Source of the DNA: an uncultured bacterium
Lineage (GTDB): Bacteria; Chloroflexota; UBA5177; JANWHV01
Length of the DNA stretch: 64,000 bases
Direction: 5' to 3'
Assembly: GCA_963827235.1 (NCBI GenBank)
Contig: CAWHAE010000018.1
Span: 96,001-160,000, forward strand
Shown: one piece after another, positions 42-47,255 of the stretch
How positions within the stretch are numbered: position 1 is the first letter of the stretch
Layout of the letters: each line of letters starts with the position of its first letter
Made by a program: the position numbers and the translations under genes
The notes under the pieces: generated by a model
The model's input: only the letters and a program-made list of their open reading frames with translations
Told to the model about the DNA's origin: nothing
Database searches by the model: none

Positions 42-71
42 AGTATATTCCATACCTGGGTAGGGTATCAA
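42..71 (-). promoter_or_regulatory. sigma70-type promoter (TTGATA-18-TATACT) pointing out of the window, with a CsoR/CstR-type operator ATACC-TGGGTAG-GGTAT (52-68) in the spacer
   Basis: Minus-strand -35 at 66-71 and -10 at 42-47; inverted repeat ATACC-N7-GGTAT around a G-rich core matches the general CsoR/RcnR/CstR operator layout. Confidence 0.6.
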
Positions 72-144: not shown

Positions 145-621
145 TCAGATGAACAGATTGACGTTTGCCTCGTCCGCTTCGCCCAGGTAGGTCGCCACGC
201 CCGCGAACTCGAGGCCGTCGATAAGCTCCTCCTCCTTGAGGCCCATGACGTCCATGGACATGGTGCAGGCAACCAGCTTTATACCTTGCTCCTTGGCCGT
301 GGCCAGCAGCTCCTCCAGCGAGGAGACGTTCTGCCCCTTCATCACCTTCTTCATCATCATGGCGCCCATGCCGCCATAGTTCATCTTCGAGAGACCGAGA
401 CGCCTGGGGCCGCGGGGCATCATCATGCCGAACATGGCCTGCAGGAAGCTCTTCTTTGCCTTCACCTTCTGGCTCTTGCGCAGGATGTTCAGGCCCCAGA
501 ACGTGAAGAACATGGTCACTTCATCGCCCATGGCGGCGGCGCCGTTGGCGATGATGAATGCCGCCAGCGCGCGGTCCAAATCCCCGCTAAAGACAATCAG
601 CGTTTTCTTGTCGGTGCGCAC
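145..621 (-). CDS. DsrE2/DsrE3-like (DsrE/DsrF/DrsH peroxiredoxin-like family) sulfur-transfer protein, ~158 aa
   Basis: Motifs FSGDLDRALAAFIIANGAAAMG, FFTFWG and ACTMSMDVMG; GTG start at 621 preceded by AAGGAGG. Confidence 0.9.
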   Translation of the reverse strand: MRTDKKTLIVFSGDLDRALAAFIIANGAAAMGDEVTMFFTFWGLNILRKSQKVKAKKSFLQAMFGMMMPRGPRRLGLSKMNYGGMGAMMMKKVMKGQNVSSLEELLATAKEQGIKLVACTMSMDVMGLKEEELIDGLEFAGVATYLGEADEANVNLFI

Positions 622-650
622 CGTATCCTCCTTCTCCGATTTCGCGACGT

Positions 651-1610
651 CTAGGCGCTGTAAGCGCGCCGGAGATACTCCGAGATGTCCGTGATTCTCA
701 TGCTCTGGCCGGCCGCCTTCCGCAGATTGACCAGGCAGAGCGGGCACATGGTCACTGCTTCCGGAGCTGCCCGGCGAAGCTGCTCCACCCGCTTCTGCGC
801 CGTGGCCGCCGCCTTGCCCGGGTACAGTGACTCGAGCGGGCCGCCGCAGCACCAGGTGAAGCGCCGGCTGTTCTCCGGCTCCACAACCGCCGCTCCTGCC
901 TGCTCGAGCAGCCGTCGAGGCTCGTCGATGACGCCTTCATAGCGGGCGAACACGCACGAGTCGTGCAGCACCATGCTCGCGTTCAGCGGCGAGCGTACGG
1001 CCGGTGCTCGCTCGGCAAGCACCTCCAGGTAGCTGCGCACGCGCACGTCGTAGACCGGCACGAGGCGCGGATACACCGATCGCAGCATGGTGGTCGTGTG
1101 CGGATCGACGGTGATCACGTTTCTCACCCCGTACCGCTTGAACAGGCGGGCGATCCGGCGGGCCTGTACGCGCACCGCCGCGTCGACTCCGAGATCGTGG
1201 ACCAGGGCTCCCGAGTACAGCTCTTCCTCGTAGAGATAGCCGAAGGTGACGCCGGCCGCGCGGAGCAGCCGCGCCACGTTCACGAGCACGTCGTCGTGCG
1301 CTTCACGGCTGCGAGCCGGCGGGCGCCCCATGAACGCCGCGACATTCACGAACCGGTTTATCCGTCTGCCCAGTGGCGTGAGGCCCGCCAGCGGCGACCC
1401 GCCGAGCCGCTCCTGCAGAGCGACCATGTGCTCGATATAGGGGATGAGCTGGTACATCAGGCCGGTGTACAGCACTGTCTCTCCGCCGCGCGGCAGATCG
1501 AGGCCGTGGGCCCATCTTGTGGCGCTTCGCCCGGAAATAGGCATCACGGACTTGCGCAGGCGCAGGTTGTCCGCCAGGATGCCTATGACGTCGCCCTTTT
1601 CCAGTGGCAT
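651..1610 (-). CDS. CCG-domain Fe-S protein (HdrB/GlpC-like), 319 aa
   Basis: C-terminal CCG domain HDSC...CCGG...MCPLC intact; N-terminal domain degenerate (YTGL, YSGA, VDPHT). Confidence 0.85.
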   Translation of the reverse strand: MPLEKGDVIGILADNLRLRKSVMPISGRSATRWAHGLDLPRGGETVLYTGLMYQLIPYIEHMVALQERLGGSPLAGLTPLGRRINRFVNVAAFMGRPPARSREAHDDVLVNVARLLRAAGVTFGYLYEEELYSGALVHDLGVDAAVRVQARRIARLFKRYGVRNVITVDPHTTTMLRSVYPRLVPVYDVRVRSYLEVLAERAPAVRSPLNASMVLHDSCVFARYEGVIDEPRRLLEQAGAAVVEPENSRRFTWCCGGPLESLYPGKAAATAQKRVEQLRRAAPEAVTMCPLCLVNLRKAAGQSMRITDISEYLRRAYSA

Positions 1611-1619
1611 GGCGCTCTC

Positions 1620-1928
1620 CTATACCGAAAAGACCGCGCGGTTGACGAAGCGTCGCAGCACGCGCACGTTCTCCGCGATGTGCACGCCGGCCGGGCAGTT
1701 GGCCTCGCAAAGCTTGCACAGCAGGCAGGAGTACACTGCTTCGTCTTCCTGCAGCACCTTGTCCTCCATGCCGAGCAACACGTAGCGGAACAGCTTGCGC
1801 GGCAGCACCGCGATACCCATGGGGCACACGGCACTGCACACGCCGCAGTTCATGCACGCCGATGCGTTGAACTCGGCGGACCTGCTGCCGACCCTCTCCG
1901 CGAGGTCCGGACGCAGAAGCACGGTCAT
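1620..1928 (-). CDS. HdrC-like 2x[4Fe-4S] protein, 102 aa
   Basis: CMNCGVCSAVCP and CLLCKLCEANCP; LPRKLFR segment as in HdrC. Confidence 0.88.
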   Translation of the reverse strand: MTVLLRPDLAERVGSRSAEFNASACMNCGVCSAVCPMGIAVLPRKLFRYVLLGMEDKVLQEDEAVYSCLLCKLCEANCPAGVHIAENVRVLRRFVNRAVFSV

Positions 1929-2173
1929 GTCTCCTCCCTGTTCAGAGCGCGGTACTGGTAGTAGCCCTCGTCGGTGGGCTCCGCGAGCGGCACGACGTAG
2001 CCGTACTTGCGCATGCCCATCATCCAGAACATCACCTCGCCTGCCGGCCGTCCCACGACCGCCGCGACCTCGGGCACGGTAAGTGGCCCATCCTGTAGAG
2101 CCTGCAGTATGGGACGGCGCATCAGGTGCTCGTCCCGGATGACCTCGCGCATGTCCCGGATTTCGGCGCTCAT
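1925..2173 (-). CDS. small winged-helix-like protein, ~82 aa
   Basis: MSAEIRD...ILQALQDGPLTVPEVAAVVG...WMMGMRKYGYV; ATGA overlaps with both neighbours. Confidence 0.75.
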   Translation of the reverse strand: MSAEIRDMREVIRDEHLMRRPILQALQDGPLTVPEVAAVVGRPAGEVMFWMMGMRKYGYVVPLAEPTDEGYYQYRALNREET

Positions 2174-3906
2174 GACGCCACCCCTGCCAGCAAGCCGTCT
2201 ATCATCCCTTTGACCTGTCCGTCCGTGTATCCCTGAAGGTCGATGGCGTCCAGCGGGCACATGGGGACGCAGCCGCCGCAGCCCTTGCAGCCGGCCTGAT
2301 CGATGACGGCGGTTTCCTTGCCGTCCACGACCGCCATGCTGATCGCCGCGTACGGGCAGCCATCGCGGCACTTTCCGCACCAGGCGCAGGCGTCGGCATT
2401 GACCCTGGCCACCTGCGGATCGAGCTGGGCCACGCGCTTCATGAGCACGGCGGCGCTCTGACTCACCGCGGCAAGGCCCGACGCCACGCTTTCCGCCGAG
2501 TTCTTCGGTCCCTGGCAGGCGCCGCACACGTAGACGCCGTCGACCACCGTCTCCACCGGCCGCAGCTTGGGGTGGATTTCGTTGAAGAATCCGTCCGTGC
2601 CCACCGGCAGCTTGAGCACCTTGACCAGATCCTCGACCGGCCGGGGCACCATGCCGGTGACCAACACCGCCAGATCGGCGCCGATCGCGACCTCCTCGCC
2701 GTCGCTGAGCAGATCGCGCACGGTCACGACCAAGCCGCCGGAGCCGTCGCGCTCCACAGTTGGCGGCGCCTGGTCAGCGAACTTGAGGTACAGCGACCCC
2801 TTCTCGCGCGACTCGGCGAACATCGTCTCGTACCGCCCGTACGTACGCATGTCGCGGTACAGATGATACTGGTGCGCTCCGGCGTCCCTGGACGCCACCT
2901 CGAGCGACGCGTGTACGGCGGCGGCGCAGCAATATCGGGAGCAGTAGGAATGCCCGTGATTCGTTCCGGCTTCCTGCCTGCTGCCCACGCAGTAGATATA
3001 GGCGACGCTTCGCACCGGCCTGCCGCGATAGATCGGCGGGCCGGATGATGCGTCGAGCATTCTCTTGAATTCGGGCAGAGTGAGCACGCCGTCGACGCCG
3101 TAGCCGAGCTCGCCGATCTCCGGCTGGTAAGTATCGAATCCGGTTGCCACGATGATGGCACCCACCTGCACGTGAATCGTGTCCGGCCTTTCGCCGTTCA
3201 GGCGAATGCCGGCCTGGTAGTTGCCGAAGCTGCCCGACTTGCTCACCAGCTCGGCGGCGGTGAATATCGTGACCTCCGGCCGCCGGCGCACGGCGTCCAT
3301 CAGCCTTTCGACCAGCTCACGGCCGTTCTTGCCGTGCGGATACATGCCGGCGAAGCCGCCGACCCAACCACCCAGCCGCTCTGCCTTTTCCACCAGGTAG
3401 ACCGCCAGGCCGAGTTCGGCCAGGGCCAAGGCCGCACGCAGTCCGGCAATGCCGCCGCCGATCACCACCGCGCCAGGCACCGTCTCCACGGAAAGCGGCT
3501 CCAGCGGCGTGCTGAGACGCGTGCGGCCGACCCCGCCGCGCACCAGCCTCGCCGCCTTGATCGTGGCCCCGGCCTTGTCGTCGGTGTGAGCCCACGAGCA
3601 CTGCTCGCGAATGTTCACCTGCGTGTACTGGTACGGATTCAGTCCGGCCCGCCGCGCTACCTCCCGGAAGGTCGTGGTGTGCAGCTTGGGCGAGCACGAG
3701 GCAACCACGATGCCGTCGAGATGCTGCTCCTGAATGTCGCGCACGATGTCCTGTTGCGTGGCATCGGAGCAGGTGAACATCGCCGTGCGGGCCACCGTCA
3801 CCCCCGGCTCACCCTGCACCTCTGCCACCACGCGCTCCACGTCGACGTAGTCCGAGATGTTCCCGCCGCAGTGGCAAATATAGACGCCGATTCTCCGCTC
3901 GCTCAT
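2170..3906 (-). CDS. hdrA: HdrA-family FAD/Fe-S protein, ~578 aa
   Basis: N-terminal YICHCGGNI...SCSP...REQC, FAD motif GGGIAG, CVGSR...CSRYCC, C-terminal 2x CxxCxxCxxxCP; start at 3906 overlaps the upstream stop. Confidence 0.9.
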   Translation of the reverse strand: MSERRIGVYICHCGGNISDYVDVERVVAEVQGEPGVTVARTAMFTCSDATQQDIVRDIQEQHLDGIVVASCSPKLHTTTFREVARRAGLNPYQYTQVNIREQCSWAHTDDKAGATIKAARLVRGGVGRTRLSTPLEPLSVETVPGAVVIGGGIAGLRAALALAELGLAVYLVEKAERLGGWVGGFAGMYPHGKNGRELVERLMDAVRRRPEVTIFTAAELVSKSGSFGNYQAGIRLNGERPDTIHVQVGAIIVATGFDTYQPEIGELGYGVDGVLTLPEFKRMLDASSGPPIYRGRPVRSVAYIYCVGSRQEAGTNHGHSYCSRYCCAAAVHASLEVASRDAGAHQYHLYRDMRTYGRYETMFAESREKGSLYLKFADQAPPTVERDGSGGLVVTVRDLLSDGEEVAIGADLAVLVTGMVPRPVEDLVKVLKLPVGTDGFFNEIHPKLRPVETVVDGVYVCGACQGPKNSAESVASGLAAVSQSAAVLMKRVAQLDPQVARVNADACAWCGKCRDGCPYAAISMAVVDGKETAVIDQAGCKGCGGCVPMCPLDAIDLQGYTDGQVKGMIDGLLAGVAS

Positions 3907-6602
3907 ACAGGTATCCTGGCTTTTTCTAGGTGCGCCGCGGCCTGTGCTACCGCGGCTCCCGCGTGCAGAATGGAGTCGGGGATGTCCTTTGCCCCGGAGG
4001 CCGCGCCGGCCACGAACACGCCGGGCATGCCCGTCCAGCCGGGGTTCATGTCCTCGTCGGGCTCGTCTATGTACCCGTAACGATCGGGCTTCAGCTCGCC
4101 GTCCGGGAAGATCTGCCGTGGGTCCAGGTTGGGCTGAACGCCCACAGCCAGCACCACGAGGTCGTACTCGGCCTCGGTGACGACGCCCCCGTGGTCGACG
4201 TCCTCGTAATGGAGAATCAGGTTGCCGTCGTCCTTCTCCGTAATCCCGGAGACGCGGCCCTTGACGAACGCGGCGCCCATCGCACTGGCCTGCTGGTAAA
4301 ACTCGTCGTAGCCTTTGCCCACGGCGCGCATGTCGACGTAGTGCACGGTGACGTCGGCAAGCGGCAGCGCACCCATGATCAGTTGGTTCTGCTTGATCGA
4401 GTACATGCAGCAGATCTTGGAGCAAAGGGGGTTCTCGACCGTCAAGTCGCGAGAGCCGGTGCACATGACGAAGGCGATGCGGTCCGGGACCTTGCCGTCG
4501 CCCGGGCGTAGCACCGTGTTGTACGGGCGGGTAGGCGCCAGCAGGCGGTCCATCTGCATGCCCGTGATCACGTTCTTGTACTTGCCGTAGCCGTATTGGG
4601 GCTTGAGGTCGGCAGGAAACAGCTTGAACCCGGTGGAGATAATCACCGCGCCTACCTCGGCCTCGATGTGCCTATCACCCATGCCCAGGTCGATGGCTCC
4701 GGCCGGGCAGGCGTGCACGCACTCGTGGCACTCCGAGCAGACGCCGCAGTCCAGGCATCGCCCGGCGCCGTAGCGCGCCTCGTCTTCGGAGAGCGGCGGC
4801 TCGATCTCCGCGAAATCCGCCGGGCCGGCACTGAGAGCCTTGGGCGCCGGCAGAGGATCGCGGCGCTCGTAGTGCTGCTGGCGGCCGATCACCTCGCCCT
4901 TCTCGATCGGGGGCAGCGAAGGCTCGCGACCGGCCGCTTTGAGATCCTCGCCGCGCAGCCAGCAGTCAATCATGGTAGCAGCGCGCCGGCCTTCGCCGGC
5001 GGCCTGCGTGATCATGGACGGCCCCGACACCACGTCGCCGGCCGCGAAGATGTAGGGCACTTCCGTCTGCAGCGTACGCGGGTTCGCCTGCACGGTGCCG
5101 TTGCGATTGACCGGCAGCGCGGGAGTGAAGGCGCCGCCCTCCGCCAGCATGCCGATCGCCAGGATAACGGCGTCACACGCAAGGTCCTCGCGGGCCGTCT
5201 CGTCGTACTGGGGACTGAATCTGCCCGAGGCATCGAAGACGGCTGTGCAGCGCTGCAGCTCCAGTCCCCGCACGGTTCCGTGTCCGTGGAACCGCCTGAC
5301 GCCCCACGAATGGTGGGGCACGATGCCCTCGGCAAGGGCTTCCTCGACCTCGAACGCGTGCGCGGGCATCTCAGGGCGCGTTTCCAGGCTGACCAGGTGC
5401 ACCGCGCTCGCCCCCAGGCGCCGGGCCGAGCGTGCGGCGTCGATGGCGACGTTGCCGCCGCCAATCACGGCCACGGTCTTGCCCGTCAGGTCGTCCGGCT
5501 GGCCCAGCTTGAGCGCCCGCAAGAAGGCCAGCGCACTGCCGATTCCGGCTTGATCGGCGCCCGGCACCTTGAGGTCGACGGCCTTGTGCGTGCCCGTTGC
5601 CAAAAGGATCGCGTCGTACCCGTCTTGCCTGAGCTCCTCGAGGTTCTCGACCCGCGTGCCCGTCGCCACCTCGATTCCCAATGCCGTCACATTGTCCACG
5701 TCCTGATCGACGACGGCGTTCGGCAGCCGATACTCGGGGATGGCCAGGCGCAGCATGCCGCCCGGACGGGGCGCCGCCTCGAACAGCTTCACACGGTAGC
5801 CCAGTCGCGCTAGTTGCCACGCCGCCGTCAGCCCGGCCGGTCCCGAGCCCACCACGGCCACCGACTTGCCGTTCGGAGCCTGAACAGGTATCCTCTTGCC
5901 GCTGTCGGAGGCGTAATGCGTGTCGGCGACGAACCGCTTGAGCCTGCGAATCGGCACCGGCCCCTCCAGGCTGCCCCGGCTGCAGGCCCCTTCGCAGGGA
6001 GCGTAGCATGCTCGACCGAGACTCCCGACCAGAGGGGTGGCCTCCGCCACGAGAGCGAACGCTTCCTCGTACTTGCCGCTGCGTACCAGCGCCACGTAGC
6101 CGTGGGCCTTGATGCCGGCAGGGCAGTCGAACGTGCAGGGCGACGTGCCTGCTCTCTCGATCACCGCTTTCTTTGGCACGGCCTGCGGGAAGGCAATGTA
6201 GGCCGCCCGGCGAGAGACCATATCGGCATTGAACTGGTCCGGCACGGCAACGCTGCAGACCATCTCACAGTCCCGGCAGCCCGTGCATAGGGCGTCGTCG
6301 ACATAGCGCGCCTTCTGCCGTACGCTTGCCATGAAGCGGCCGCTGCCGTCCCGGCGAATGTGCTCGACCTCGGTGTAGGTCAGCACCGTCACGTTCGGAT
6401 GATGAATGGTGGCACCCATCTTGGGTGTGGAGATGCAGCTCGCGCAGTCCAGCGTGGGGAACACTTTGCTGAGCAGAATCATCCTGCCGCCCACGCTGGC
6501 TTCCCTCTCCACGAGCAGCACCTTGTAGCCCATGTCGCCGAGCTTCAGCGCGGACTCCATACCGCCTATGCCGGCACCGACCACCAGCGCGTCGTAGTCC
6601 AT
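3903..6602 (-). CDS. HdrA-like protein with inserted GltD/NfnB-like NAD(P)H-binding module (HdrL-like), 899 aa
   Basis: GAGIGG, KVFPTLDCASC, CTGCRDCEMVC, then CTFDCPAG/GRACYAPCEGAC/GSGPAG/GGGNVAID, then CLDCGVCSECHEC and CTGSRD...CSKICC. Confidence 0.9.
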   Translation of the reverse strand: MDYDALVVGAGIGGMESALKLGDMGYKVLLVEREASVGGRMILLSKVFPTLDCASCISTPKMGATIHHPNVTVLTYTEVEHIRRDGSGRFMASVRQKARYVDDALCTGCRDCEMVCSVAVPDQFNADMVSRRAAYIAFPQAVPKKAVIERAGTSPCTFDCPAGIKAHGYVALVRSGKYEEAFALVAEATPLVGSLGRACYAPCEGACSRGSLEGPVPIRRLKRFVADTHYASDSGKRIPVQAPNGKSVAVVGSGPAGLTAAWQLARLGYRVKLFEAAPRPGGMLRLAIPEYRLPNAVVDQDVDNVTALGIEVATGTRVENLEELRQDGYDAILLATGTHKAVDLKVPGADQAGIGSALAFLRALKLGQPDDLTGKTVAVIGGGNVAIDAARSARRLGASAVHLVSLETRPEMPAHAFEVEEALAEGIVPHHSWGVRRFHGHGTVRGLELQRCTAVFDASGRFSPQYDETAREDLACDAVILAIGMLAEGGAFTPALPVNRNGTVQANPRTLQTEVPYIFAAGDVVSGPSMITQAAGEGRRAATMIDCWLRGEDLKAAGREPSLPPIEKGEVIGRQQHYERRDPLPAPKALSAGPADFAEIEPPLSEDEARYGAGRCLDCGVCSECHECVHACPAGAIDLGMGDRHIEAEVGAVIISTGFKLFPADLKPQYGYGKYKNVITGMQMDRLLAPTRPYNTVLRPGDGKVPDRIAFVMCTGSRDLTVENPLCSKICCMYSIKQNQLIMGALPLADVTVHYVDMRAVGKGYDEFYQQASAMGAAFVKGRVSGITEKDDGNLILHYEDVDHGGVVTEAEYDLVVLAVGVQPNLDPRQIFPDGELKPDRYGYIDEPDEDMNPGWTGMPGVFVAGAASGAKDIPDSILHAGAAVAQAAAHLEKARIPV

Positions 6603-6605
6603 CGC

Positions 6606-7034
6606 CTATTCCTCCTTGGACGGCGCCAGCACGGCGAGCGAATCAGAGAAGTCGCGCATGTAGCTGGTGAACGGCTCCGCGCAGACCGAGCAGATGGCAC
6701 CCATGCGCACGCGCCCAGGATCCAGCCCGTGGTCCCGCAGCAGCGTCTGCGCCTCGGCAATGATACGCGCTGCGCGCTCCGAGCAATCCGGCAGGTACGC
6801 GCACTCGTCGCCGTCGGCGGCAATGAACACTCCATCGCAGCCGTGTTGCAGCGCATACAGCACCCAGGCCGGCTTGATGCCGCTCGTGCATGGCAGGCTA
6901 AGCACCATTACGTTCGGCGAATAGTGCAGATGGGAGCTGCCCGCAAGGTCGATGCCGGGGTCCGAAATGTTGTTGGTCGAGAAGACGAGGATCTTGGGAT
7001 CCGGGGCGGCAGTGGCGTGGAATGGGACGGCCAC
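6606..7034 (-). CDS. MvhD/FlpD-like iron-sulfur subunit (divergent), 142 aa
   Basis: IDLAG, LPCTSGI, GCDGVFIA, ECAY, GLDPGRV pattern; position next to hdrA. Confidence 0.8.
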   Translation of the reverse strand: MAVPFHATAAPDPKILVFSTNNISDPGIDLAGSSHLHYSPNVMVLSLPCTSGIKPAWVLYALQHGCDGVFIAADGDECAYLPDCSERAARIIAEAQTLLRDHGLDPGRVRMGAICSVCAEPFTSYMRDFSDSLAVLAPSKEE

Positions 7035-7289
7035 TTACTTCAGCTTCTTGACATAGAGCTTCCAGCTGCCGGCGTCTTCGACTACGCCCAGGAACTCGTG
7101 GCCCATCTTCTTGGCCCAGGCGGGGAGATCCTTCTGCGTGCCCCGGTCGGTCGCCAGAACCTCCATGATCTGCCCGACCTTGACCTCGGCAATGCCCTTC
7201 TTGGCTGCCAGGATCGGCCCCGGGCACGAGGTCCCGCGCGCGTCCACTACCTTGTCGACGTGAATGTTCTGCAGCATGTCCGTGGCCAT
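7035..7289 (-). CDS. tusA: TusA-family sulfur carrier, 84 aa
   Basis: DARGTSCPGP motif; GGGAG RBS upstream. Confidence 0.92.
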   Translation of the reverse strand: MATDMLQNIHVDKVVDARGTSCPGPILAAKKGIAEVKVGQIMEVLATDRGTQKDLPAWAKKMGHEFLGVVEDAGSWKLYVKKLK

Positions 7290-7373
7290 CTCGTCTCACT
7301 CCCTATCGTCGGCTGCCCGAGCGGGCATTTCGCATTGGTACTGAGGATCGACGGTCACATGATGCGCCCAGGG

Positions 7374-7388
7374 TACCGTACCCGGGTA
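7374..7388. promoter_or_regulatory. putative CsoR/CstR-type operator TACC-GTACCCG-GGTA upstream of tusA
   Basis: Same TACC-N7-GGTA layout as the site at 53-67; about 85 bp upstream of the operon start. Confidence 0.5.
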
Positions 7389-7563
7389 GGGCCAAAGGCA
7401 ACGAGTCGGCGGGCCGTTGGTCCCGACTGCGACGCGGCTCCGAGCAATCGGCGAAGCAGGCTGGACAGGGCCGTCCCCGCCTCGCGGGCAGCGAGCCTGG
7501 GACCGTTAGGCGCGCAGACGGCGGCGGAGCCTCGGGCAGGGCGAAGACGCGGACATTCGGCGC

Positions 7564-8598
7564 TTACGGGTTGATGATCACCTTGTTCCGGTCCGGGCTG
7601 GCCATCACCTCCATGGCCTTGTGAATGTCCTGCAGCGGGAAGCGGTGGGAGACGATCTTCTCGATATCCACCAGCCCGGTTTCCATCAGGCGAATAGCGC
7701 TTTGCATGGCGAGTGGCGTGGTGCTGAAGCTGGCGTCCATGCGAGCCTCGAGGAAGTGAGCCAGCCCGCCGTCAAGCTCAAACTTCTCATGTGTGGTGAT
7801 GCCGAACACGTTCCAGTGCGTGCCGCGCCGTAACAGATCGACCATCAGCCTGACCGCTTCTATGGGCCCGGCGGCCTCGACCACCAGATCCGGACCGTTG
7901 GGAATGATGCCGTACACGAGCTTCTTGACCTCCGGGTCGCTCGCGTTGACGGCGTGTGTGGCACCGAGCGTCAGGGCATGCGCGAGGGCGTGGGGACTGG
8001 TGTCCACGGCGATCAGCCTGCCGGCGCCCGCGGCGCGGGCTACCATCAGGCAAAGCAGCCCGATTCCTCCCACGCCGATCACCACGACGTCGTCGCCAAC
8101 TGTCATCTCGCTGTGCTGGATCACGCCCTTCCAGGCACCTGAGAGGGGCTCGGTCTCCGCGGCGGCGTCAAATGAGATGCTGGCCGGCTTGTGGTACAGG
8201 CAGTTCTCCTTGGTCAGCATGTACTCCGCGAAGGCGCCGGGCCAGATGTCCACGGGACCGTCACCGCCCGTGGTGAAGGCGCGCTCGCAGTAGTGGGACT
8301 TGCCCATGCGGCAGTCGCGGCAGAAGCCGCAGTACCCCGAGGGCGAGCAGATCACTTCGTCCCCGACCTTGAAGTGATCGACGCCGGGACCGATTTCGGC
8401 CACCACGCCGGAGGGCTCGTGCCCGGCGATGAACGGGAAGCTCACGTTGCGCCGGATGCCCTTGACGGCCTTGTAGTCGGTAGCACAGATGCCGCACGAC
8501 CTGACTTTCACCAGCACGGTCCCCGGCACGGTGGGCTCGGGAATGGGAACATCTTCCAGTCGCAGGTCGTTGAAATCGTGGAGGACGGCGGCAAGCAT
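7564..8598 (-). CDS. Zn-dependent (MDR) sugar/polyol dehydrogenase, ~344 aa
   Basis: GICATD, GHE, CGFCRDC...C, GVGGIG; ATG at 8598 after CAGGAGA RBS. Confidence 0.9.
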   Translation of the reverse strand: MLAAVLHDFNDLRLEDVPIPEPTVPGTVLVKVRSCGICATDYKAVKGIRRNVSFPFIAGHEPSGVVAEIGPGVDHFKVGDEVICSPSGYCGFCRDCRMGKSHYCERAFTTGGDGPVDIWPGAFAEYMLTKENCLYHKPASISFDAAAETEPLSGAWKGVIQHSEMTVGDDVVVIGVGGIGLLCLMVARAAGAGRLIAVDTSPHALAHALTLGATHAVNASDPEVKKLVYGIIPNGPDLVVEAAGPIEAVRLMVDLLRRGTHWNVFGITTHEKFELDGGLAHFLEARMDASFSTTPLAMQSAIRLMETGLVDIEKIVSHRFPLQDIHKAMEVMASPDRNKVIINP

Positions 8599-8665
8599 CG
8601 GTCTCTCCTGTCCTGTCTCGGGGACTTCACCGGAAAGCCGGCCGGACCACCCGGTCGCGTCCATC

Positions 8666-8707
8666 CCCGGTAGCTCATAATACCAGCTGGTATTATGAGC
8701 TACCGGG
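8666..8707. repeat. perfect spacer-less 42-bp palindrome CCCGGTAGCTCATAATACCAG|CTGGTATTATGAGCTACCGGG
   Basis: 21 of 21 base pairs checked by hand. Confidence 0.95.
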
Positions 8708-8720
8708 TTGAGCTTGTCAA
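8692..8720 (-). promoter_or_regulatory. sigma70 promoter TTGACA-17-CATAAT for the Zn-dehydrogenase
   Basis: -35 at 8715-8720 and -10 at 8692-8697; nearly the same -10 region as the promoter at 11763. Confidence 0.8.
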
Positions 8721-8777
8721 GGCAGCGCCGATCGGCGCACGCCTGGTCAACCTGCTGTCGCGCCCGGTGGTCTTCGC

Positions 8778-10052
8778 TCACTGCAACGGATAGGCGCGAG
8801 AGCGGCGAACCGCGTCGTAGAGCGCCAGCAGGTTCTCCGTCGGAATGCCTGCCTGCACGTTGTGAATGGTGGTGAACACGAAGCCTCCGCCCGGCCCAAA
8901 GACGCGCATGCGCTCCCGCACCATCGCCCGCACTTCTTCCGGCGTGCCGAAGGGCAGGACGCGCTGCGTGTCGATGCCGCCGCCCCACAGCGTTACCCGC
9001 TGTCCGTACCTGGCCTTGACCGCCGCCGGATCCATGTCGGCGGCCGACGTCTGGATCGGGTTGACGATGTCGAAGCCCGCCTCCACGATGTCGTCCAGCA
9101 GCCGCCAGACGGAGCCGCAGGAGTGAATGAAGGTCTTCCAGCCCGTCTGCTGGTGGATCCAGCCGTTCAGTCGGGTGTGGAACGGCTTGAACAGCTCCCG
9201 GTACATCTTCGGCGAGACCAGGGGCCCGCTCTGTGCGCCGAAGTCCGTGCCGGTGACGAACGCCACGCTCACGCGGTCGCCCACGACCTGGTAGATGCGC
9301 GCCAGGTTCCGCAGCGCGATCTCCGTCTGGCGATCGAACAGCTCGTACACGAAGTCACGGCGAGCGCTCAGGCTCATGTACCATTCCGCCACGCCACGGA
9401 TGCCTCTGGGATGCTTCAGTCCCATGCCGCAGACCCGCGTGATGTCGCCGAGACTCGTACCGCCGAACGAGCCCACGATGGCCCGGCCGGTGGCTGCGAG
9501 GCGCTCCGTCTCGTCGCGCAGGAAGCCGAGGTCCTGGTCGGTGATCGGGCCCACTTCCTCCAGATTGTCGTCGACCGTGAGGGTTTCCTCGTCAATCGGT
9601 TCCTGCCGCTCGATGGCGTCGAAGTACAATCCACCGCTCGGCATGCGCGCCGAGGGCGGCGCCGAGCGGTCTCCCTCCGGATACATCAGCAGATCGCCGT
9701 TCGGCTCCCGCTCGGTGTTGAACCCTGCGGGAACCAAAGTCGGCGTGCCGTCGAACGCCGTCCACGGCTTCCAGCCTTCGTTGCGATAGCCGTACCGGGT
9801 GACAGGCAGCGTCAGGCCGACGACATCCACCCCGAGCGCATCCAGCAGGTCCTGCGCGATCTCGCCCAGCATGTGATAGGGATCGATCACCTTGACCGGG
9901 GTGCCGGGTGGATCGAGTCTCAGGGCCTGACGCAGCAGGTAGACGGAGTTTACTACCATGCCGGAGGCGCCGGTGGCGCCCAGATCGAGCGGCACCATGT
10001 CGGGCTCCTTGTGGTCGAGTGCCAGTGCGACCCGCTCTAGCGACGTGTGCAT
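8778..10052 (-). CDS. uroporphyrinogen decarboxylase/MtaA-CmuA-like family protein, 424 aa
   Basis: HKEPDMVPLDLG, GTDFGAQ, HSCG, NPIQTSA, WGGGIDTQ, GGGFVF..HNVQ. Confidence 0.85.
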   Translation of the reverse strand: MHTSLERVALALDHKEPDMVPLDLGATGASGMVVNSVYLLRQALRLDPPGTPVKVIDPYHMLGEIAQDLLDALGVDVVGLTLPVTRYGYRNEGWKPWTAFDGTPTLVPAGFNTEREPNGDLLMYPEGDRSAPPSARMPSGGLYFDAIERQEPIDEETLTVDDNLEEVGPITDQDLGFLRDETERLAATGRAIVGSFGGTSLGDITRVCGMGLKHPRGIRGVAEWYMSLSARRDFVYELFDRQTEIALRNLARIYQVVGDRVSVAFVTGTDFGAQSGPLVSPKMYRELFKPFHTRLNGWIHQQTGWKTFIHSCGSVWRLLDDIVEAGFDIVNPIQTSAADMDPAAVKARYGQRVTLWGGGIDTQRVLPFGTPEEVRAMVRERMRVFGPGGGFVFTTIHNVQAGIPTENLLALYDAVRRSRAYPLQ

Positions 10053-10074
10053 CTGCAGGTTCTCCCCTCACATG

Positions 10075-10109
10075 TATGGTGTGCCGCCCCTAGGGGGCGG
10101 TACACCATA
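10075..10109. other. 16-bp stem-loop just upstream of the UroD-like RBS (possible terminator or leader structure)
   Basis: TATGGTGTGCCGCCCC-TAG-GGGGCGGTACACCATA, one mismatch. Confidence 0.6.
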
Positions 10110-10121
10110 TGTCAGTCCAAT

Positions 10122-10176
10122 TGGTCATACCAGCCGAGCTACTGTGGACTCTAGTCGGCCGGGTAGCCGTTGTCAA
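10122..10176 (-). promoter_or_regulatory. promoter TTGACA-17-TAGAGT with downstream FadR-type operator TGGTCATACCA (10122-10132)
   Basis: -35 at 10171-10176; TGGT-N3-ACCA palindrome typical of the FadR subfamily. Confidence 0.7.
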
Positions 10177-10328
10177 GAGTGCCTGCCACGTGGTGCAGCG
10201 ATGCGCCTGCTCGAGACCGAGGATATCTTGTCCGGCGCCGTTCGCCGCCGCTCCCAGGCGAAAAGACCGCTCGCGGCGCCGGCAGGCCGCCACTGCCGAC
10301 GCCCAACGGGAGATTCGCCAAGCGTGGC

Positions 10329-11090
10329 TCAGCTGTCGGTGAACGATGCCGCGCTCTCCGGCTCCTGATCGATCCTGAACCCCTGGGCCAGGAAATCGCC
10401 CTCGGTATGGGCGAGATGGACGCGCATGGCGTCGCGTGCTGCCTCGTAGTCGTGCCGCTCGATCGCATGCAGAATCGCGGCGTGCTCGTGCACGGTGCGG
10501 TCGATGGAGACGGCACCCCGGAAGCTCGCGATGCGGCTGGCACGCAAGAGGTCGGTGATTGGATGAGTCACCGTCGTGAGCAGCCGATTGCGGGCCGCGC
10601 GAATGATCAGCTGGTGGAACTCGAAATCCGCCTGCACGTAACCCTCGGGCGACCCGGGCTGCGTCTCCAGTTCGTGCACCGAACGGCTCATCGCGGCGTG
10701 ATCGGAGGGGAGAGAGCGCTGCGCGGCCAGTCCTGCTACCTCGACCTCCAGCAGCCTGCGCACCTCCAGCAGCTCGGCGAGCGTGACGCCTTCGCGCCGG
10801 AGCAGCAGCTCGAGGAAGTCGCGCATCGGCCCGCCAGAAGGGCTGCCCACCAGGACGCCGGTGCCCTGCCTGATGGTCACGATTCCCCGCGCGGCCAGCA
10901 CCTGCAGCGCCTCGCGGATGACCGTGCGGCTGACGCCCAGCATGCTGCAAAGCTCGCGCTCGGAGGGCAGGAGCGTGCCCGTGGCGAAGCGCTCCTGGGT
11001 AATCATATCGATGAGCTTACCGACCACCTGCCGCGACAGGGTCTCGCCGGTGGCGCGCTTTCGGCGCTGCATCGGCTCGATCTCGGCCAT
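10329..11090 (-). CDS. GntR family, FadR-subfamily transcriptional regulator, ~253 aa
   Basis: LPSERELC..LGVSRTVIREAL HTH; FCD domain DFEFH...N...EH...H; GGAGGAGG RBS before ATG at 11090. Confidence 0.93.
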   Translation of the reverse strand: MAEIEPMQRRKRATGETLSRQVVGKLIDMITQERFATGTLLPSERELCSMLGVSRTVIREALQVLAARGIVTIRQGTGVLVGSPSGGPMRDFLELLLRREGVTLAELLEVRRLLEVEVAGLAAQRSLPSDHAAMSRSVHELETQPGSPEGYVQADFEFHQLIIRAARNRLLTTVTHPITDLLRASRIASFRGAVSIDRTVHEHAAILHAIERHDYEAARDAMRVHLAHTEGDFLAQGFRIDQEPESAASFTDS

Positions 11091-11297
11091 GTCCGCCCTC
11101 CTCCGTAGGCCACTGCCGAAAGTGCATCGGCCCGGTCCGCCCTCTCCGTGGCGGCCATCCCCGTTCGCGCGGCCGGCCGTGCGGATCGCTCCCCAGCGGC
11201 AGGCGCGAAGCGCCATACTGGCAAGGAGCCGGCCTGCCTCGGGCGCCGCCCGGCCACTCGCGCGATCCTCAAGGCCGCAGCTCCCACTGTAACAGGT

Positions 11298-11327
11298 ATG
11301 ATAGCCCGGTTCTACCTCCGTTGTCAA
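11298..11327 (-). promoter_or_regulatory. promoter TTGACA-18-TATCAT for the GntR gene
   Basis: Minus-strand hexamers; -10 overlaps a TACC half-site as in the sister promoters. Confidence 0.6.
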
Positions 11328-11369
11328 AGTCACGCTTGGTAGGTTCTGGTAGTTGATGCCCCGAACCGA

Positions 11370-23105: not shown

Positions 23106-24428
23106 TTACTGGCAGGCCGCGGCGACCTCACTCGCTATCCGCGACCATTCCCAGATGCGATGGGGCTCGTAGCGAGCGGTACTGATGTCCTTCATGATCA
23201 CCTCCACGTGGCAGCCGTGCGCCCGTGCCTTTGCCAGCACGCTCTCCAGTTGCTCCCGCGCCTCGGTCGGGCGCCATACGTCGTCGGCGAATATTGCCGG
23301 GCTCGGCTTGTAGGAGAACACGTAGTGGTCTCCCACGTTGGCCACCGCTTCGTCGACGTTGATCCACGGGCTCATCGACACCTTGCGCAGGTTGGGCACG
23401 TTCGCCAGAATGGCCATTTTGCGATGCAGCGGATCGCAGCAGCCATAATAGCTGAGACCAAACCGGCTCATCCACCGCACTTCATATTGCAGGGCGAACT
23501 CCCAATGCATCCGAGGAGAGACATCCGAGAAGATCTGCGCCGTGCTGCTGCCCCAAAGGTCCTCTGCCCGCACGCGCGCCGGATCGTATCCGGGTCGAGG
23601 AAGCTCCTCCGTGTAGCCAAGACCCCCTGAGCCTACGCGGTGGTAGCCGTTGTTCAAGGTCAGCAGGTTCTGCTCTTCGAACTGATCGAGCATCCTCAAG
23701 TAGGCACTCGTCAGGCGGTCTATCGCCTTGTGGACCAACTCGGGCCGATCGTACAGGTCGGTCAGAAGCTCCGTGATACCCCACCAACGCACCAGTTCAT
23801 CCCACGGCGCGCACCAGAAGCAGAATCCGTTGACACCGCGCTTCTGCACGTCCAGCAGGTCGCCGAAGACATGGCGAAGCAGCTGGAAGCTCTGCTCCGA
23901 GGCACGCACGTCGTGCGTTACCACAGGGTTCTTGATCTTCTCGAGATCCTCTTCGCCGGCTATCTGCACGTTGAAGTGCCGGGAGACCACCGAATTCGCC
24001 CGGTCGGTGGCGACCACGTCCACATCCTCGTCGATGCCAAAGCCGGAGTTGTAGACCACGAGCGGCGAGTAGACGACCGGCTCGACGACCATGTCACACG
24101 GCATATGCTCCCAGTGGTAGATCAGCCTGCGCAGCTCACTTTCGTGATAGCGGCTCCATGCGCTAGTCGCCTGCAGTCGAAGCCGGCCGTCGTAATCCAT
24201 TTCATGCCAGGGAACCTCGTCGATCCAGACCATCGGCCTGACCGGCCGCAGTCCATTCAGCTCTCGCCACATGGCCGCCGTGTTCTTCTGCACCGGCAGA
24301 GCGGCGATCGCGGCAAGTCGTTCGCCCAGGGACCGCAGGACTGTCCTGTCGTGCTCGGAGATCTCGTCTGGGCAGGCCGGCGCGGAGATGCCCGGTGCTG
24401 GATCCTCGTGAGAGCTCACGCTGTACAT
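23106..24428 (-). CDS. uncharacterised UroD/MetE-like TIM-barrel protein, ~440 aa
   Basis: VSPRMHWEFALQYE, YYGCCDPL, LRKVSMSPW, FSYKPSP, IMKD. Confidence 0.7.
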   Translation of the reverse strand: MYSVSSHEDPAPGISAPACPDEISEHDRTVLRSLGERLAAIAALPVQKNTAAMWRELNGLRPVRPMVWIDEVPWHEMDYDGRLRLQATSAWSRYHESELRRLIYHWEHMPCDMVVEPVVYSPLVVYNSGFGIDEDVDVVATDRANSVVSRHFNVQIAGEEDLEKIKNPVVTHDVRASEQSFQLLRHVFGDLLDVQKRGVNGFCFWCAPWDELVRWWGITELLTDLYDRPELVHKAIDRLTSAYLRMLDQFEEQNLLTLNNGYHRVGSGGLGYTEELPRPGYDPARVRAEDLWGSSTAQIFSDVSPRMHWEFALQYEVRWMSRFGLSYYGCCDPLHRKMAILANVPNLRKVSMSPWINVDEAVANVGDHYVFSYKPSPAIFADDVWRPTEAREQLESVLAKARAHGCHVEVIMKDISTARYEPHRIWEWSRIASEVAAACQ

Positions 24429-47238: not shown

Positions 47239-47255
47239 CGCGAGTGGATCTCCTT

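Follow-up and report, generated by a model that had tools for sequence, protein, structure and literature searches.

Hdr-type complexes are central to methanogenesis, to sulfate reduction (Qmo and Flx-Hdr), and to sulfur oxidation (sHdr). Passages of PMC10504309 describe how the C and B subunits interchange with QmoC in the Qmo of Gram-positive sulfate reducers, and how a type II Qmo, which is closer to HdrA, occurs in organisms with or without Dsr/Apr, where its role is unknown. The sHdr gene sets, as laid out in sections of PMC11094781, are type I (shdrC1B1AHC2B2) and type II (shdrC1B1AHB3-etfAB(-emo), one syntenic cluster). For most bacterial HdrA paralogs, neither the substrate nor the partner is known. 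Here, we describe an operon in a 64,000-nucleotide stretch of DNA from an uncultured Chloroflexota bacterium (assembly GCA_963827235.1, contig CAWHAE010000018.1, positions 96,001 to 160,000; hereafter the window), in which genetics names a sulfur carrier, TusA, as the partner of two HdrA paralogs, an association that extends over at least three phyla. Hundreds of soil, peat, and sulfate-reducing bacteria carry this gene set (341 related stretches, one genome per species). With a probability of roughly one half, the operon encodes an NAD(P)H-linked redox enzyme that would act on sulfur carried by TusA/DsrE2. The functional assignment rests on genomic association, and the operon is widespread and sharply defined.

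Operon architecture and subunits

Open reading frame (ORF) analysis identified eight packed genes on the minus strand (window positions 145-7289; Table 1) in the order tusA-mvhD-hdrL-hdrA2-wHTH-hdrC-hdrB-dsrE2, where hdrL denotes an hdrA with a GltD insert and wHTH a winged-helix gene. ATGA overlaps join hdrL/hdrA2, hdrA2/wHTH, and wHTH/hdrC, and the codon-position GC bias is gene-like in all eight genes (genome G+C 65%). Pfam and NCBIfam confirmed the family of each gene except the winged-helix gene, which had a weak match below cut-off. An earlier interpretation made from the letters of the window alone (the sequence-only reading) had reported eight genes with gaps of 0-29 bp or ATGA overlaps, and our coordinates agree. 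Its HdrA/HdrA'-MvhD-HdrC-HdrB module between TusA and DsrE2 is right in gene content and wrong in order, as mvhD precedes both hdrA genes and wHTH lies between hdrA2 and hdrC. The eighth gene, which it had counted and left unnamed, encodes the 82 amino acid (aa) winged-helix protein. It had also recognized two different HdrA paralogs, one with its own GltD/NfnB-type NAD(P)H module, and the domain alignments bear this out.

Those alignments used the solved methanogen HdrA 5odc_A (654 aa) as reference, and HdrA affiliation was judged by bit-score comparisons. The best sequence matches of both paralogs are methanogen HdrA (375.8 and 334.8 bits), and the alignments indicate that the two have undergone complementary domain losses. 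HdrL residues 4-150 align to 5odc_A 145-290 and residues 618-898 to 289-571. The protein retains only the flavin (thioredoxin-reductase-like) domain and the inserted ferredoxin domain, and is without HdrA's N-terminal as well as C-terminal ferredoxin domains (5odc_A 1-144 and 572-654). A complete GltD/NfnB-type module (approximately residues 150-616) sits between the two cluster motifs of the inserted ferredoxin domain. Residues 154-628 align to the NfnB/GltD-type chains 9bov_A, 9n5u_A (NfnA of NfnABC), and 8oh5_C and to NfnB 4ylf_B, and Pfam/NCBIfam report HdrA together with GltD/NfnB-type Pyr_redox_2 and Fer4_20. HdrA2 aligns at residues 1-234 to 5odc_A 1-234 and at residues 239-573 to 312-650, skipping chain residues 235-311. 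It has the N-terminal, flavin, and C-terminal ferredoxin domains and lacks the inserted ferredoxin domain. A CxxC pair beside the flavin site (C53/C56, motif DCASC) is invariant in HdrL and missing from HdrA2, and 21 cysteines of HdrL are invariant in 57 of 57 aligned sequences. C56 aligns with residue U197 of methanogen HdrA, which is located beside the flavin (flavin adenine dinucleotide, FAD) according to portions of a 2026 structure paper (PMC13518236). As presented there, electrons leave the bifurcating FAD on the low-potential side by way of the inserted ferredoxin domain, and the N- and C-terminal regions of methanogen HdrA, with VhuD/MvhD, bind the electron-input modules. The HdrA2 flavin domain alone scores 181.1 bits against methanogen HdrA 5odc_A and 106 bits against sHdrA 6tjr_A. 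In two cultured Desulfotomaculia genomes, the HdrA2 of the cluster is 62-63% identical to that of the window, whereas their many other HdrA copies reach 40% at most; HdrA2 is thus a distinct orthologous group.

The HdrB-like protein has one CCG match (Pfam, residues 214-297). Its five cluster cysteines (C219, C254, C255, C289, and C292) lie only in the C-terminal domain and are invariant in 81 of 81 sequences. The N-terminal pseudo-CCG domain is cysteine-free in all 62 and all 81 sequences of two alignments and carries the invariant polar motifs YTG, YSGAL, and DPHTT at the corresponding places. AlphaFold2 predicted a two-domain HdrB-type fold (predicted local distance difference test, pLDDT, 83.7), for which Foldseek returned mycobacterial EtfD (9ojn, E 8.8e-12), LutA (9a6l_A, 1.8e-7), and methanogen HdrB (8rwn_B/5odc_B, 6e-6 to 3e-5). 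Searching the HdrB-family profile against sequences of solved structures matched only EtfD 9ojn_A and not HdrB, and kinship to HdrB is seen at the fold level only; DsrK is among the weak NCBIfam matches. HdrC has two CxxCxxCxxxCP motifs, whose eight cysteines are invariant in 72 of 72 sequences, and is a bare two-cluster ferredoxin domain without the C-terminal extension of methanogen HdrC (TIGR03290 matched at model positions 2-77 of 144; Pfam Fer4_17/Fer4_8). The MvhD-like protein matches PF02662 (FlpD/MvhD, 98 bits), and its cysteines 49, 78, 84, 115, and 118 are invariant in 59 of 59 sequences.

Two of the remaining proteins are sulfur-transfer proteins. TusA matches PF01206 with 84.8 bits and the NCBIfam TusA equivalog with 52.4 bits, under the cut-off of 78. 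It has the CPGP motif, and Cys22 is identical in 61 of 61 aligned sequences. A selenium role was considered for this protein and rejected, as YedF models score below the TusA model. The DsrE2-like protein matches PF13686 (DrsE_2) with 229.6 bits and the DsrE2 equivalog NF047629 with 106.6 bits, under the cut-off of 210, and Cys119 is invariant in 59 of 59. Taken over all subunits, every presumed metal ligand, TusA Cys22, and DsrE2 Cys119 are 100% kept across 57-81 orthologs. The winged-helix protein is cysteine-free with a median isoelectric point of 5.39 (75 sequences). It has a weak HTH_20 match below cut-off (E 4e-4), and its AlphaFold2 model (pLDDT 90.2) resembles generic MarR/ArsR-type winged helices in Foldseek (best E 5.5e-4). 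Its profile had no significant match among sequences of solved structures (best E 0.057), and in a protein atlas it falls only into clusters with the automatic name "MarR/transcriptional regulator", to which no Pfam family is assigned. A predicted complex of the HdrB-like protein, HdrC, and the winged-helix protein (score 0.01, mark 0.32) gave no evidence either way. The winged-helix protein may be a structural subunit, an adaptor, or a regulator.

Table 1. Features of the operon and its flanks in window coordinates; spacers are counted from the preceding gene, along the operon from tusA to dsrE2.
Feature	Position	Strand	Spacer (bp)	Description
tusA	7035-7289	-		84 aa TusA-family sulfur carrier; GGGAG resembling a ribosome-binding site upstream
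mvhD-like	6606-7034	-	0	142 aa FlpD/MvhD-type Fe-S electron-transfer subunit; GTG start abuts tusA stop
hdrL-like	3903-6602	-	3	899 aa HdrA with GltD/NfnB NAD(P)H-FAD module
hdrA2	2170-3906	-	-4	578 aa HdrA paralog; ATGA overlap
winged-helix gene (wHTH)	1925-2173	-	-4	82 aa, Cys-free; ATGA overlaps, translationally coupled on both sides
hdrC	1620-1928	-	-4	102 aa ferredoxin-like subunit; ATGA overlap
hdrB-like	651-1610	-	9	319 aa two-domain CCG-fold protein
dsrE2-like	145-621	-	29	158 aa DrsE_2-family sulfur-transfer protein; GTG start with AAGGAGG
Presumed promoter/operator region	7290-7563	-		274 bp 5' of tusA; no cluster ORF
Promoter-like hexamers TTGATA-18-TATACT	42-71	-		Between dsrE2 and the off-window genes; weak, 1 site versus 1.0 expected by shuffling

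Conservation, sister loci, and genomic surroundings

We searched 401 genomes from the phylum of the window with the HdrB-like protein and obtained matches in 15. Ten of these, the genome of the window included, hold a full-length ortholog (58-100% identity), and tusA-mvhD-hdrL-hdrA2-wHTH-hdrC-hdrB is present in the ortholog loci of all nine relatives. The other five matches have 27-32% identity, and none of the other cluster genes occurs at the three such loci that were fetched. From the scan of one genome for each of 185,579 species, the best 80 loci were kept; 59 of them have at least 6.3 kb upstream of hdrB and are assessable for upstream genes, and both flanks are available for 53. All 59 assessable loci have MvhD and HdrL, and 58 have TusA, HdrA2, the winged-helix protein, and HdrC, the order from tusA to hdrB being kept in 58-59 of the 59. 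The DsrE2-like gene lies 3' of hdrB in 28 of the 53 two-flank loci, which is the arrangement of the window, and 5' in 19, within a dsrE2-tusA-dsrE-tusA block; none is nearby in six. The conservation of TusA and DsrE beside homologues, on which the sequence-only reading had staked its case, is thus borne out (TusA 58/59, DsrE2-like 47/53). Because this synteny is conserved across phyla, a chance grouping of genes is ruled out.

Judged by record titles, the best 80 loci comprise 49 from Actinomycetota (Thermoleophilia, Gaiellales, Acidimicrobiaceae, Solirubrobacterales, and others), 16 from Chloroflexota, Dormibacterota, or Limnocylindrales, 11 from Bacillota, and 4 other or unspecific ones. The Bacillota carriers include the cultured Desulfotruncus alcoholivorax (DSM 16058), D. 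arcticus (DSM 17038), and Desulfoscipio geothermicus (DSM 3669), and Desulfallas sp. Identity of the HdrB-like protein to that of the window is similar inside (58-71%) and outside the phylum (58-67%), which suggests that the cluster moves horizontally as a unit. In several metagenome-assembled loci (L043:5931-8619; L056, L060, and L103), hdrL or hdrA2 is broken into two to six ORFs; these are probably assembly frameshift errors and not real gene decay. A TusA-less locus of the same phylum (L018:6371-16646, plus strand) has mvhD, an Fe-S protein gene, hdrL, a gene for an HdrC-HdrB fusion containing two CCG domains, and hdrA, followed by a thioesterase gene and etfBA. Here the same HdrL/HdrA core has other partners.

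One phylum-mate carries, after the winged-helix gene and in place of hdrC and hdrB, a gene for a 397-aa QmoC-like protein. The QmoC model is covered over its whole length, at 203.4 bits (E 6.9e-60) against a cut-off of 300, and the C-terminal half of the protein is hydrophobic. Relatives with at least 45% identity occur in 14 of the 401 phylum genomes, and three more have 30-32%. We fetched 11 of these QmoC-type sister loci. MvhD, an HdrL/HdrA-type gene, and HdrA2 precede the QmoC-like gene in this order in 10 of the 11, and the winged-helix gene was likewise detected in 10. TusA was detected in 10 as well; the eleventh locus starts 283 bp before mvhD and cannot be judged. A long HdrL is present in six loci, and four have a short HdrA from which the GltD module is precisely missing and in which the CxxC is retained. 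What stays constant is thus TusA together with MvhD, the pair of HdrA paralogs, the winged-helix protein, and an HdrC-type domain, whereas the NAD(P)H and HdrB/quinone modules are exchangeable.

The soluble and membrane versions occur together in three genomes. At L097:11936-18900 and L068:13259-18900 (both minus strand; Limnocylindrales and Thermoleophilia metagenome-assembled genomes), the HdrB and QmoC-like versions lie side by side in opposite orientation. A reduced, aberrant membrane form (L160:2668-5786, minus strand) comprises tusA with a dsrE-like gene, a short HdrA2-like fragment, and the winged-helix and QmoC-like genes; neither mvhD nor hdrL was detected there. In another QmoC-type locus (L155:7049-9037, plus strand), the HdrA2 ORF is approximately 84 residues longer than that of the window and no separate winged-helix ORF was detected. 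HdrA2 and the winged-helix protein may be fused here, and such a fusion would speak for the latter being a subunit.

To survey neighbouring genes, 758 flanking ORFs of the 80 loci were clustered, and representatives of the ten most recurrent families were scanned with Pfam. The commonest neighbour is an ArsR/SmtB-family regulator. A BLAST count covered the 55 loci that have 2 kb or more of upstream DNA: in the 1.5 kb upstream of the cluster, ArsR/SmtB-family regulators are present in 26 and CsoR/RcnR-family regulators in 6, so that 32 of the 55 have one or the other. ArsR and CsoR are the two families to which the known persulfide sensors belong (SqrR/BigR and CstR, respectively). Conserved cysteine pairs, which may correspond to those of the sensors, are present in these neighbours, and the position of such regulators upstream fits a role in sulfane-sulfur metabolism; the link to persulfide sensing is suggestive only. 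A rhodanese gene is near the cluster in 12 of the 80 loci, a DsrE-like gene lies between two tusA copies in 10, and a SufS-like cysteine desulfurase is a neighbour in 5. Other recurrent neighbours are PadR regulators, a TPMT/TehB-like methyltransferase, and Mrp/NUBPL-type and NifB-like Fe-S assembly genes. No GcvH-like family was found among the ten recurrent families scanned, and no sulfite exporter, sulfite oxidase/reductase, or thiosulfate importer among the recurrent neighbours.

The sequence-only reading had seen no hydrogenase, formate dehydrogenase, Flx, Apr/Dsr, or lipoate-binding protein (LbpA) gene in the operon or window, and a scan of 36 further window ORFs bears this out. Within the window, to which this search was confined, neither Apr nor Sat families occur among the ORFs. 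Genome-wide, there is no DsrC and no DsrA above cut-off, which removes DsrC as a substrate in this organism. The single GcvH-type match of the genome (PF01597) is on contig C12, away from the cluster. Contig C16 alone has NiFe hydrogenases, which neighbour a second, ordinary hdrA-mvhD. There (approximately 667600-674000; locus L022, L131-L136), an hdrC ... hdrA-mvhD set directly adjoins the hydrogenase genes, and this classical Mvh/Hdr-type module is therefore separate from the TusA-linked operon. Hydrogen as the electron donor via MvhD was rejected on the same grounds, since the window has no hydrogenase and those of the genome stand beside the other hdrA-mvhD.

Just off the window, 164 bp 3' of dsrE2 and on the same strand, Pfam identified OsmC-like, single-domain rhodanese, and DUF302 genes, so the operon is not fully "self-contained" and not quite "bracketed", as the sequence-only reading had put it. 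These genes may form a separate transcript behind their own weak promoter-like site. Promoter and terminator scans upstream of tusA gave nothing useful and no sigma-70-like match. Directly 5' of the operon (7564-11333, minus strand) are genes for a Zn-dependent alcohol dehydrogenase, a URO-D-fold protein, which is possibly a methyltransferase-type enzyme, and a GntR/FCD regulator; they have no evident tie to the sulfur cluster. Elsewhere in the window, an unusual 675-aa ORF within a sugar ABC transporter operon (51142-53169, minus strand) fuses an N-terminal beta-propeller (PQQ_2/WD40-like) to an ABC permease domain (BPD_transp_1). Three further minus-strand ORFs of 792, 970, and 440 aa (44959-47337, 47256-50168, and 23106-24428) show gene-like codon bias and match no Pfam family at E 1e-5. 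Those of 792 and 970 aa lie between an enolase-superfamily gene and an ABC transporter.

Proposed reaction and competing explanations

The gene set would encode a soluble Fe-S flavoprotein complex of the Hdr/Qmo type, built around an HdrL:HdrA2 heterodimer that rebuilds one asymmetric HdrA dimer. HdrL would provide the flavin site with the CxxC and the in-built GltD/NfnB-type NAD(P)H:FAD module, wired via the inserted-ferredoxin clusters. Electrons of NAD(P)H would pass in or out by way of the GltD flavin with its clusters, the inserted-ferredoxin clusters, and the flavin of HdrL. A second branch would run over the flavin-domain cluster, HdrC, and the single HdrB-like cluster, presumably of the non-cubane type. 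The third port would be MvhD with the terminal domains of HdrA2, which provides the N- and C-terminal domains that dock MvhD-type input modules in methanogens. Because TusA is the invariant non-redox partner, we take carrier-bound sulfane sulfur as the substrate, that is, a persulfide or related sulfane sulfur on TusA, which DsrE2 and, in the genome of the window, the neighbouring rhodanese would feed. The sequence-only reading had likewise proposed that NAD(P)H is coupled to a TusA/DsrE-bound persulfide or disulfide; the sulfur detoxification or respiration in a heterotroph to which it assigned the complex is an inference.

In the direction that is thermodynamically easy for this version with NAD(P)H and HdrB, carrier-bound sulfane sulfur would be reduced to sulfide and the carrier thiol regenerated, in response to reactive sulfur species. 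If the NAD(P)H-linked reading is right, this reductive direction is about twice as probable as its reverse in the NAD(P)H version. The reaction would take place at the single cluster of the HdrB-like protein or at the flavin/CxxC site of HdrL. Single-CCG catalysts such as DsrK act on the DsrC trisulfide, which is a point for the cluster. TusA persists where HdrB is missing, so HdrB is not necessarily the site at which TusA-bound sulfur reacts, which is a point for the HdrL site.

Several observations weigh against an NAD(P)H-linked reductase. The QmoC-type loci replace hdrC and hdrB, and 4 of the 11 are without the GltD insert, so the TusA-linked process does not depend on HdrB or on NAD(P)H; as some loci without the insert still have TusA, NAD(P)H would be one of several interchangeable partners. 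Reduction of a persulfide by quinol would be uphill, which favours the opposite direction at least in the QmoC-type versions. The potentials of NAD(P)H (approximately -320 mV) and of the persulfide couple (approximately -270 mV) are close, and bifurcation with a persulfide substrate is doubtful because this gap leaves little energy for the reduction of ferredoxin. Six of the 53 two-flank loci are without a DsrE2-like gene nearby. No ArsR or CsoR regulator is upstream of the window's own locus among its scanned ORFs. Three ArsR-type regulators from other loci scored 43-47 bits against a BigR equivalog cut-off of 155, and three CsoR-type proteins matched only FrmR/RicR/RcnR models, below cut-off, with no CstR match. 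Finally, a search of sequencing runs listed no RNA run containing the locus, and the two DNA runs listed contain only 5-6% of the sampled words.

The first alternative is that the complex works in the oxidative direction. Sulfide or carrier-bound sulfane sulfur would be oxidized (e.g., H2S + TusA-SH -> TusA-SSH, or further, as proposed for sHdr), with electrons passing to NAD(P)+ in the soluble version or to quinone in the QmoC-like one, and soil heterotrophs would gain a supplementary energy source or a detoxification route. Electron transfer from sulfide-level sulfur to quinone is downhill, and TusA is retained in the QmoC-like versions, of which some have no NAD(P)H insert. Thermoleophilia, Gaiellales, and Dormibacterota, which are largely aerobic lineages, appear in many of the record titles; the cluster is, however, also found in strictly anaerobic sulfate reducers. 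Transfer from sulfide/persulfide to NAD(P)+ would be slightly uphill. The known sHdr systems always occur with TusA/DsrE/rhodanese, and the fused HdrB3 of type II has one non-cubane cluster (passages of PMC11094781), as would be the case here. Yet there is no second HdrC1B1 pair, which is the proposed catalytic unit of sHdr, and no LbpA near the cluster, the sole GcvH-type gene being on another contig, and HdrA2 is nearer to methanogen HdrA than to sHdrA (181.1 versus 106 bits). On balance, we regard this alternative as unlikely.

A second alternative, which we judge less likely again, takes the complex as a generic HdrL/Qmo-type bifurcating or confurcating module with NAD(P)H, a ferredoxin-type partner at MvhD/HdrA2, and a thiol/disulfide at HdrB, in which TusA/DsrE2 would be accessory (e.g., supplying sulfur for Fe-S clusters) or unrelated co-travellers. 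The three-port architecture suits flavin-based bifurcation, TusA-less clusters of HdrL, HdrA, MvhD, and HdrB/C-type genes exist in the same phylum, one with ETF genes, and Mrp/NUBPL-type and NifB-like Fe-S assembly genes flank several loci (one such neighbour family in six). An hdrL/hdrA tandem with hdrCB and fdhB is also reported for Desulfobacterium autotrophicum in parts of PMC2702500. Against an accessory TusA stands its retention, across phyla, in 58 of the 59 loci and, among the QmoC-type loci, in 10 of 11, with an invariant active-site cysteine. Moreover, DsrE2, the extra DsrE, and the extra TusA shift position yet remain in the cluster, a persistence that is unusual for an accessory biogenesis factor.

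It is improbable that TusA/DsrE carries a thiosulfonate (-S-SO3-) that is cleaved reductively to sulfite and a thiol, a low-potential reaction that would justify a bifurcating or confurcating HdrA core: two flavin sites and an NfnB-type flavin do exceed the needs of simple NAD(P)H:persulfide reduction, and archaeal DsrE3A and TusA bind and transfer thiosulfonate (in portions of PMC4175335), but the recurrent neighbours include no gene for handling sulfite or importing thiosulfate and the carrier is of the DrsE_2 type, not DsrE3A, the sequence data otherwise not separating thiosulfonate from persulfide.

Beyond the NAD(P)H-linked reading, we tentatively propose that TusA-dependent HdrA-heterodimer enzymes may form an undescribed, horizontally mobile family in soil, peat, and sulfate-reducing bacteria. 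The operon of the window would be its soluble, NAD(P)H-linked member. The invariant core would consist of TusA and MvhD with a complementary pair of HdrA paralogs and a winged-helix adaptor, with sulfur chemistry at the HdrA flavin/CxxC and control by persulfide-sensing ArsR/CsoR regulators. Modules for NAD(P)H (GltD insert), quinone (QmoC-like), and thiol/disulfide (single-cluster HdrB) would be interchangeable ports, and a protein persulfide could thereby take part in flavin-based bifurcation or confurcation. Should TusA-bound sulfur prove to be what the complex acts on, little-studied but abundant soil and peat lineages would have a new Fe-S-flavoprotein route for reactive sulfur species, and this would be a rare case of a protein persulfide as the substrate of an HdrA-based, possibly bifurcating, machine. 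The split of the HdrA domains and the exact insertion of an NfnB-type module in the low-potential branch amount to a natural experiment on the rewiring of HdrA electron paths, and the cultured carriers (Desulfotruncus and Desulfoscipio) make the system testable.

Comparison with described Hdr and persulfide-reducing systems

Flavoprotein persulfide reductases, such as Npsr and CoA persulfide reductase, are found in persulfide-stress operons. Their net reaction (NAD(P)H + RSSH -> RSH + H2S) is the one proposed for the enzyme here, and in both cases rhodanese, TusA/DsrE-type proteins, and regulators of the CstR/SqrR-type families are neighbours. These are single flavoproteins with redox-active cysteines, whereas the operon would encode a multi-subunit Fe-S flavoprotein complex.

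The methanogen HdrABC-MvhAGD complex provides the best HdrA matches, and MvhD, HdrC-type, and HdrB-fold subunits are all encoded in the operon. In the latter, however, the four HdrA domains are split over two paralogs, HdrB has one cluster site and not two, HdrC is truncated, and no hydrogenase is adjacent. FlxABCD-HdrABC, which is NADH-linked and interacts with DsrC, likewise joins an Hdr complex that has an MvhD-like subunit to pyridine nucleotides, and its sulfur substrate is bound to a protein, as described in parts of PMC6776052 and PMC10504309. The operon and window have no FlxA/B/C-type genes, the NAD(P)H site is a GltD-type one within an HdrA fusion, and the genome is without DsrC.

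The sHdr systems resemble the operon in tying an Hdr-type complex to TusA, DsrE-family proteins, and rhodanese, and in having a small gene between the A and C/B genes. The winged-helix gene has the same position as sHdrH, between A and C2/B genes, position alone being compared. HdrB3 of type II sHdr also binds only one non-cubane cluster, as stated in passages of PMC11094781. By contrast, the operon and window have no C1B1 pair, LbpA, or etfAB/EMO, and the operon has one HdrC and one HdrB-like gene. Both of its HdrA proteins are long and methanogen-type, compared with the approximately 350-aa sHdrA, and MvhD and an NAD(P)H module are present. The verdict of the sequence-only reading, that the operon matches neither methanogen Hdr-Mvh nor sHdr, therefore stands: HdrA is split, HdrB has one cluster, and there is no hydrogenase, and the C1B1 pair, LbpA, and ETF are missing.

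In the full-text literature searched, neither a tusA-mvhD-hdrL-hdrA cluster nor the QmoC-type sister was found described. No biochemical characterization of HdrL was found in the literature searched. From the domain composition of the subunits, the closest architectures are HdrL and QmoAB-HdrCB. The HdrL of D. autotrophicum (Strittmatter et al. 2009), in the published description available in parts of PMC2702500, is a fusion of HdrA and the glutamate synthase small subunit with an NAD(P)H site, encoded beside mvhD, and the protein encoded here matches that description. Locus VIII of the same organism has an hdrL/hdrA tandem followed by hdrC/hdrB-type genes, as in the window; the HdrL loci drawn in those parts of PMC2702500 have fdhB or dsrABC instead of TusA/DsrE2. 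With QmoABC and QmoAB-HdrCB, the operon shares two HdrA-like flavoproteins and a C-type ferredoxin subunit, and a terminal module that is either HdrC and HdrB or a membrane QmoC. It differs from Qmo in that one HdrA bears a GltD/NfnB module, mvhD is a separate gene, and a conserved winged-helix protein is encoded in the operon. No aprAB/sat lies alongside in the window, and in the place of the Apr genes stand TusA and DsrE2.

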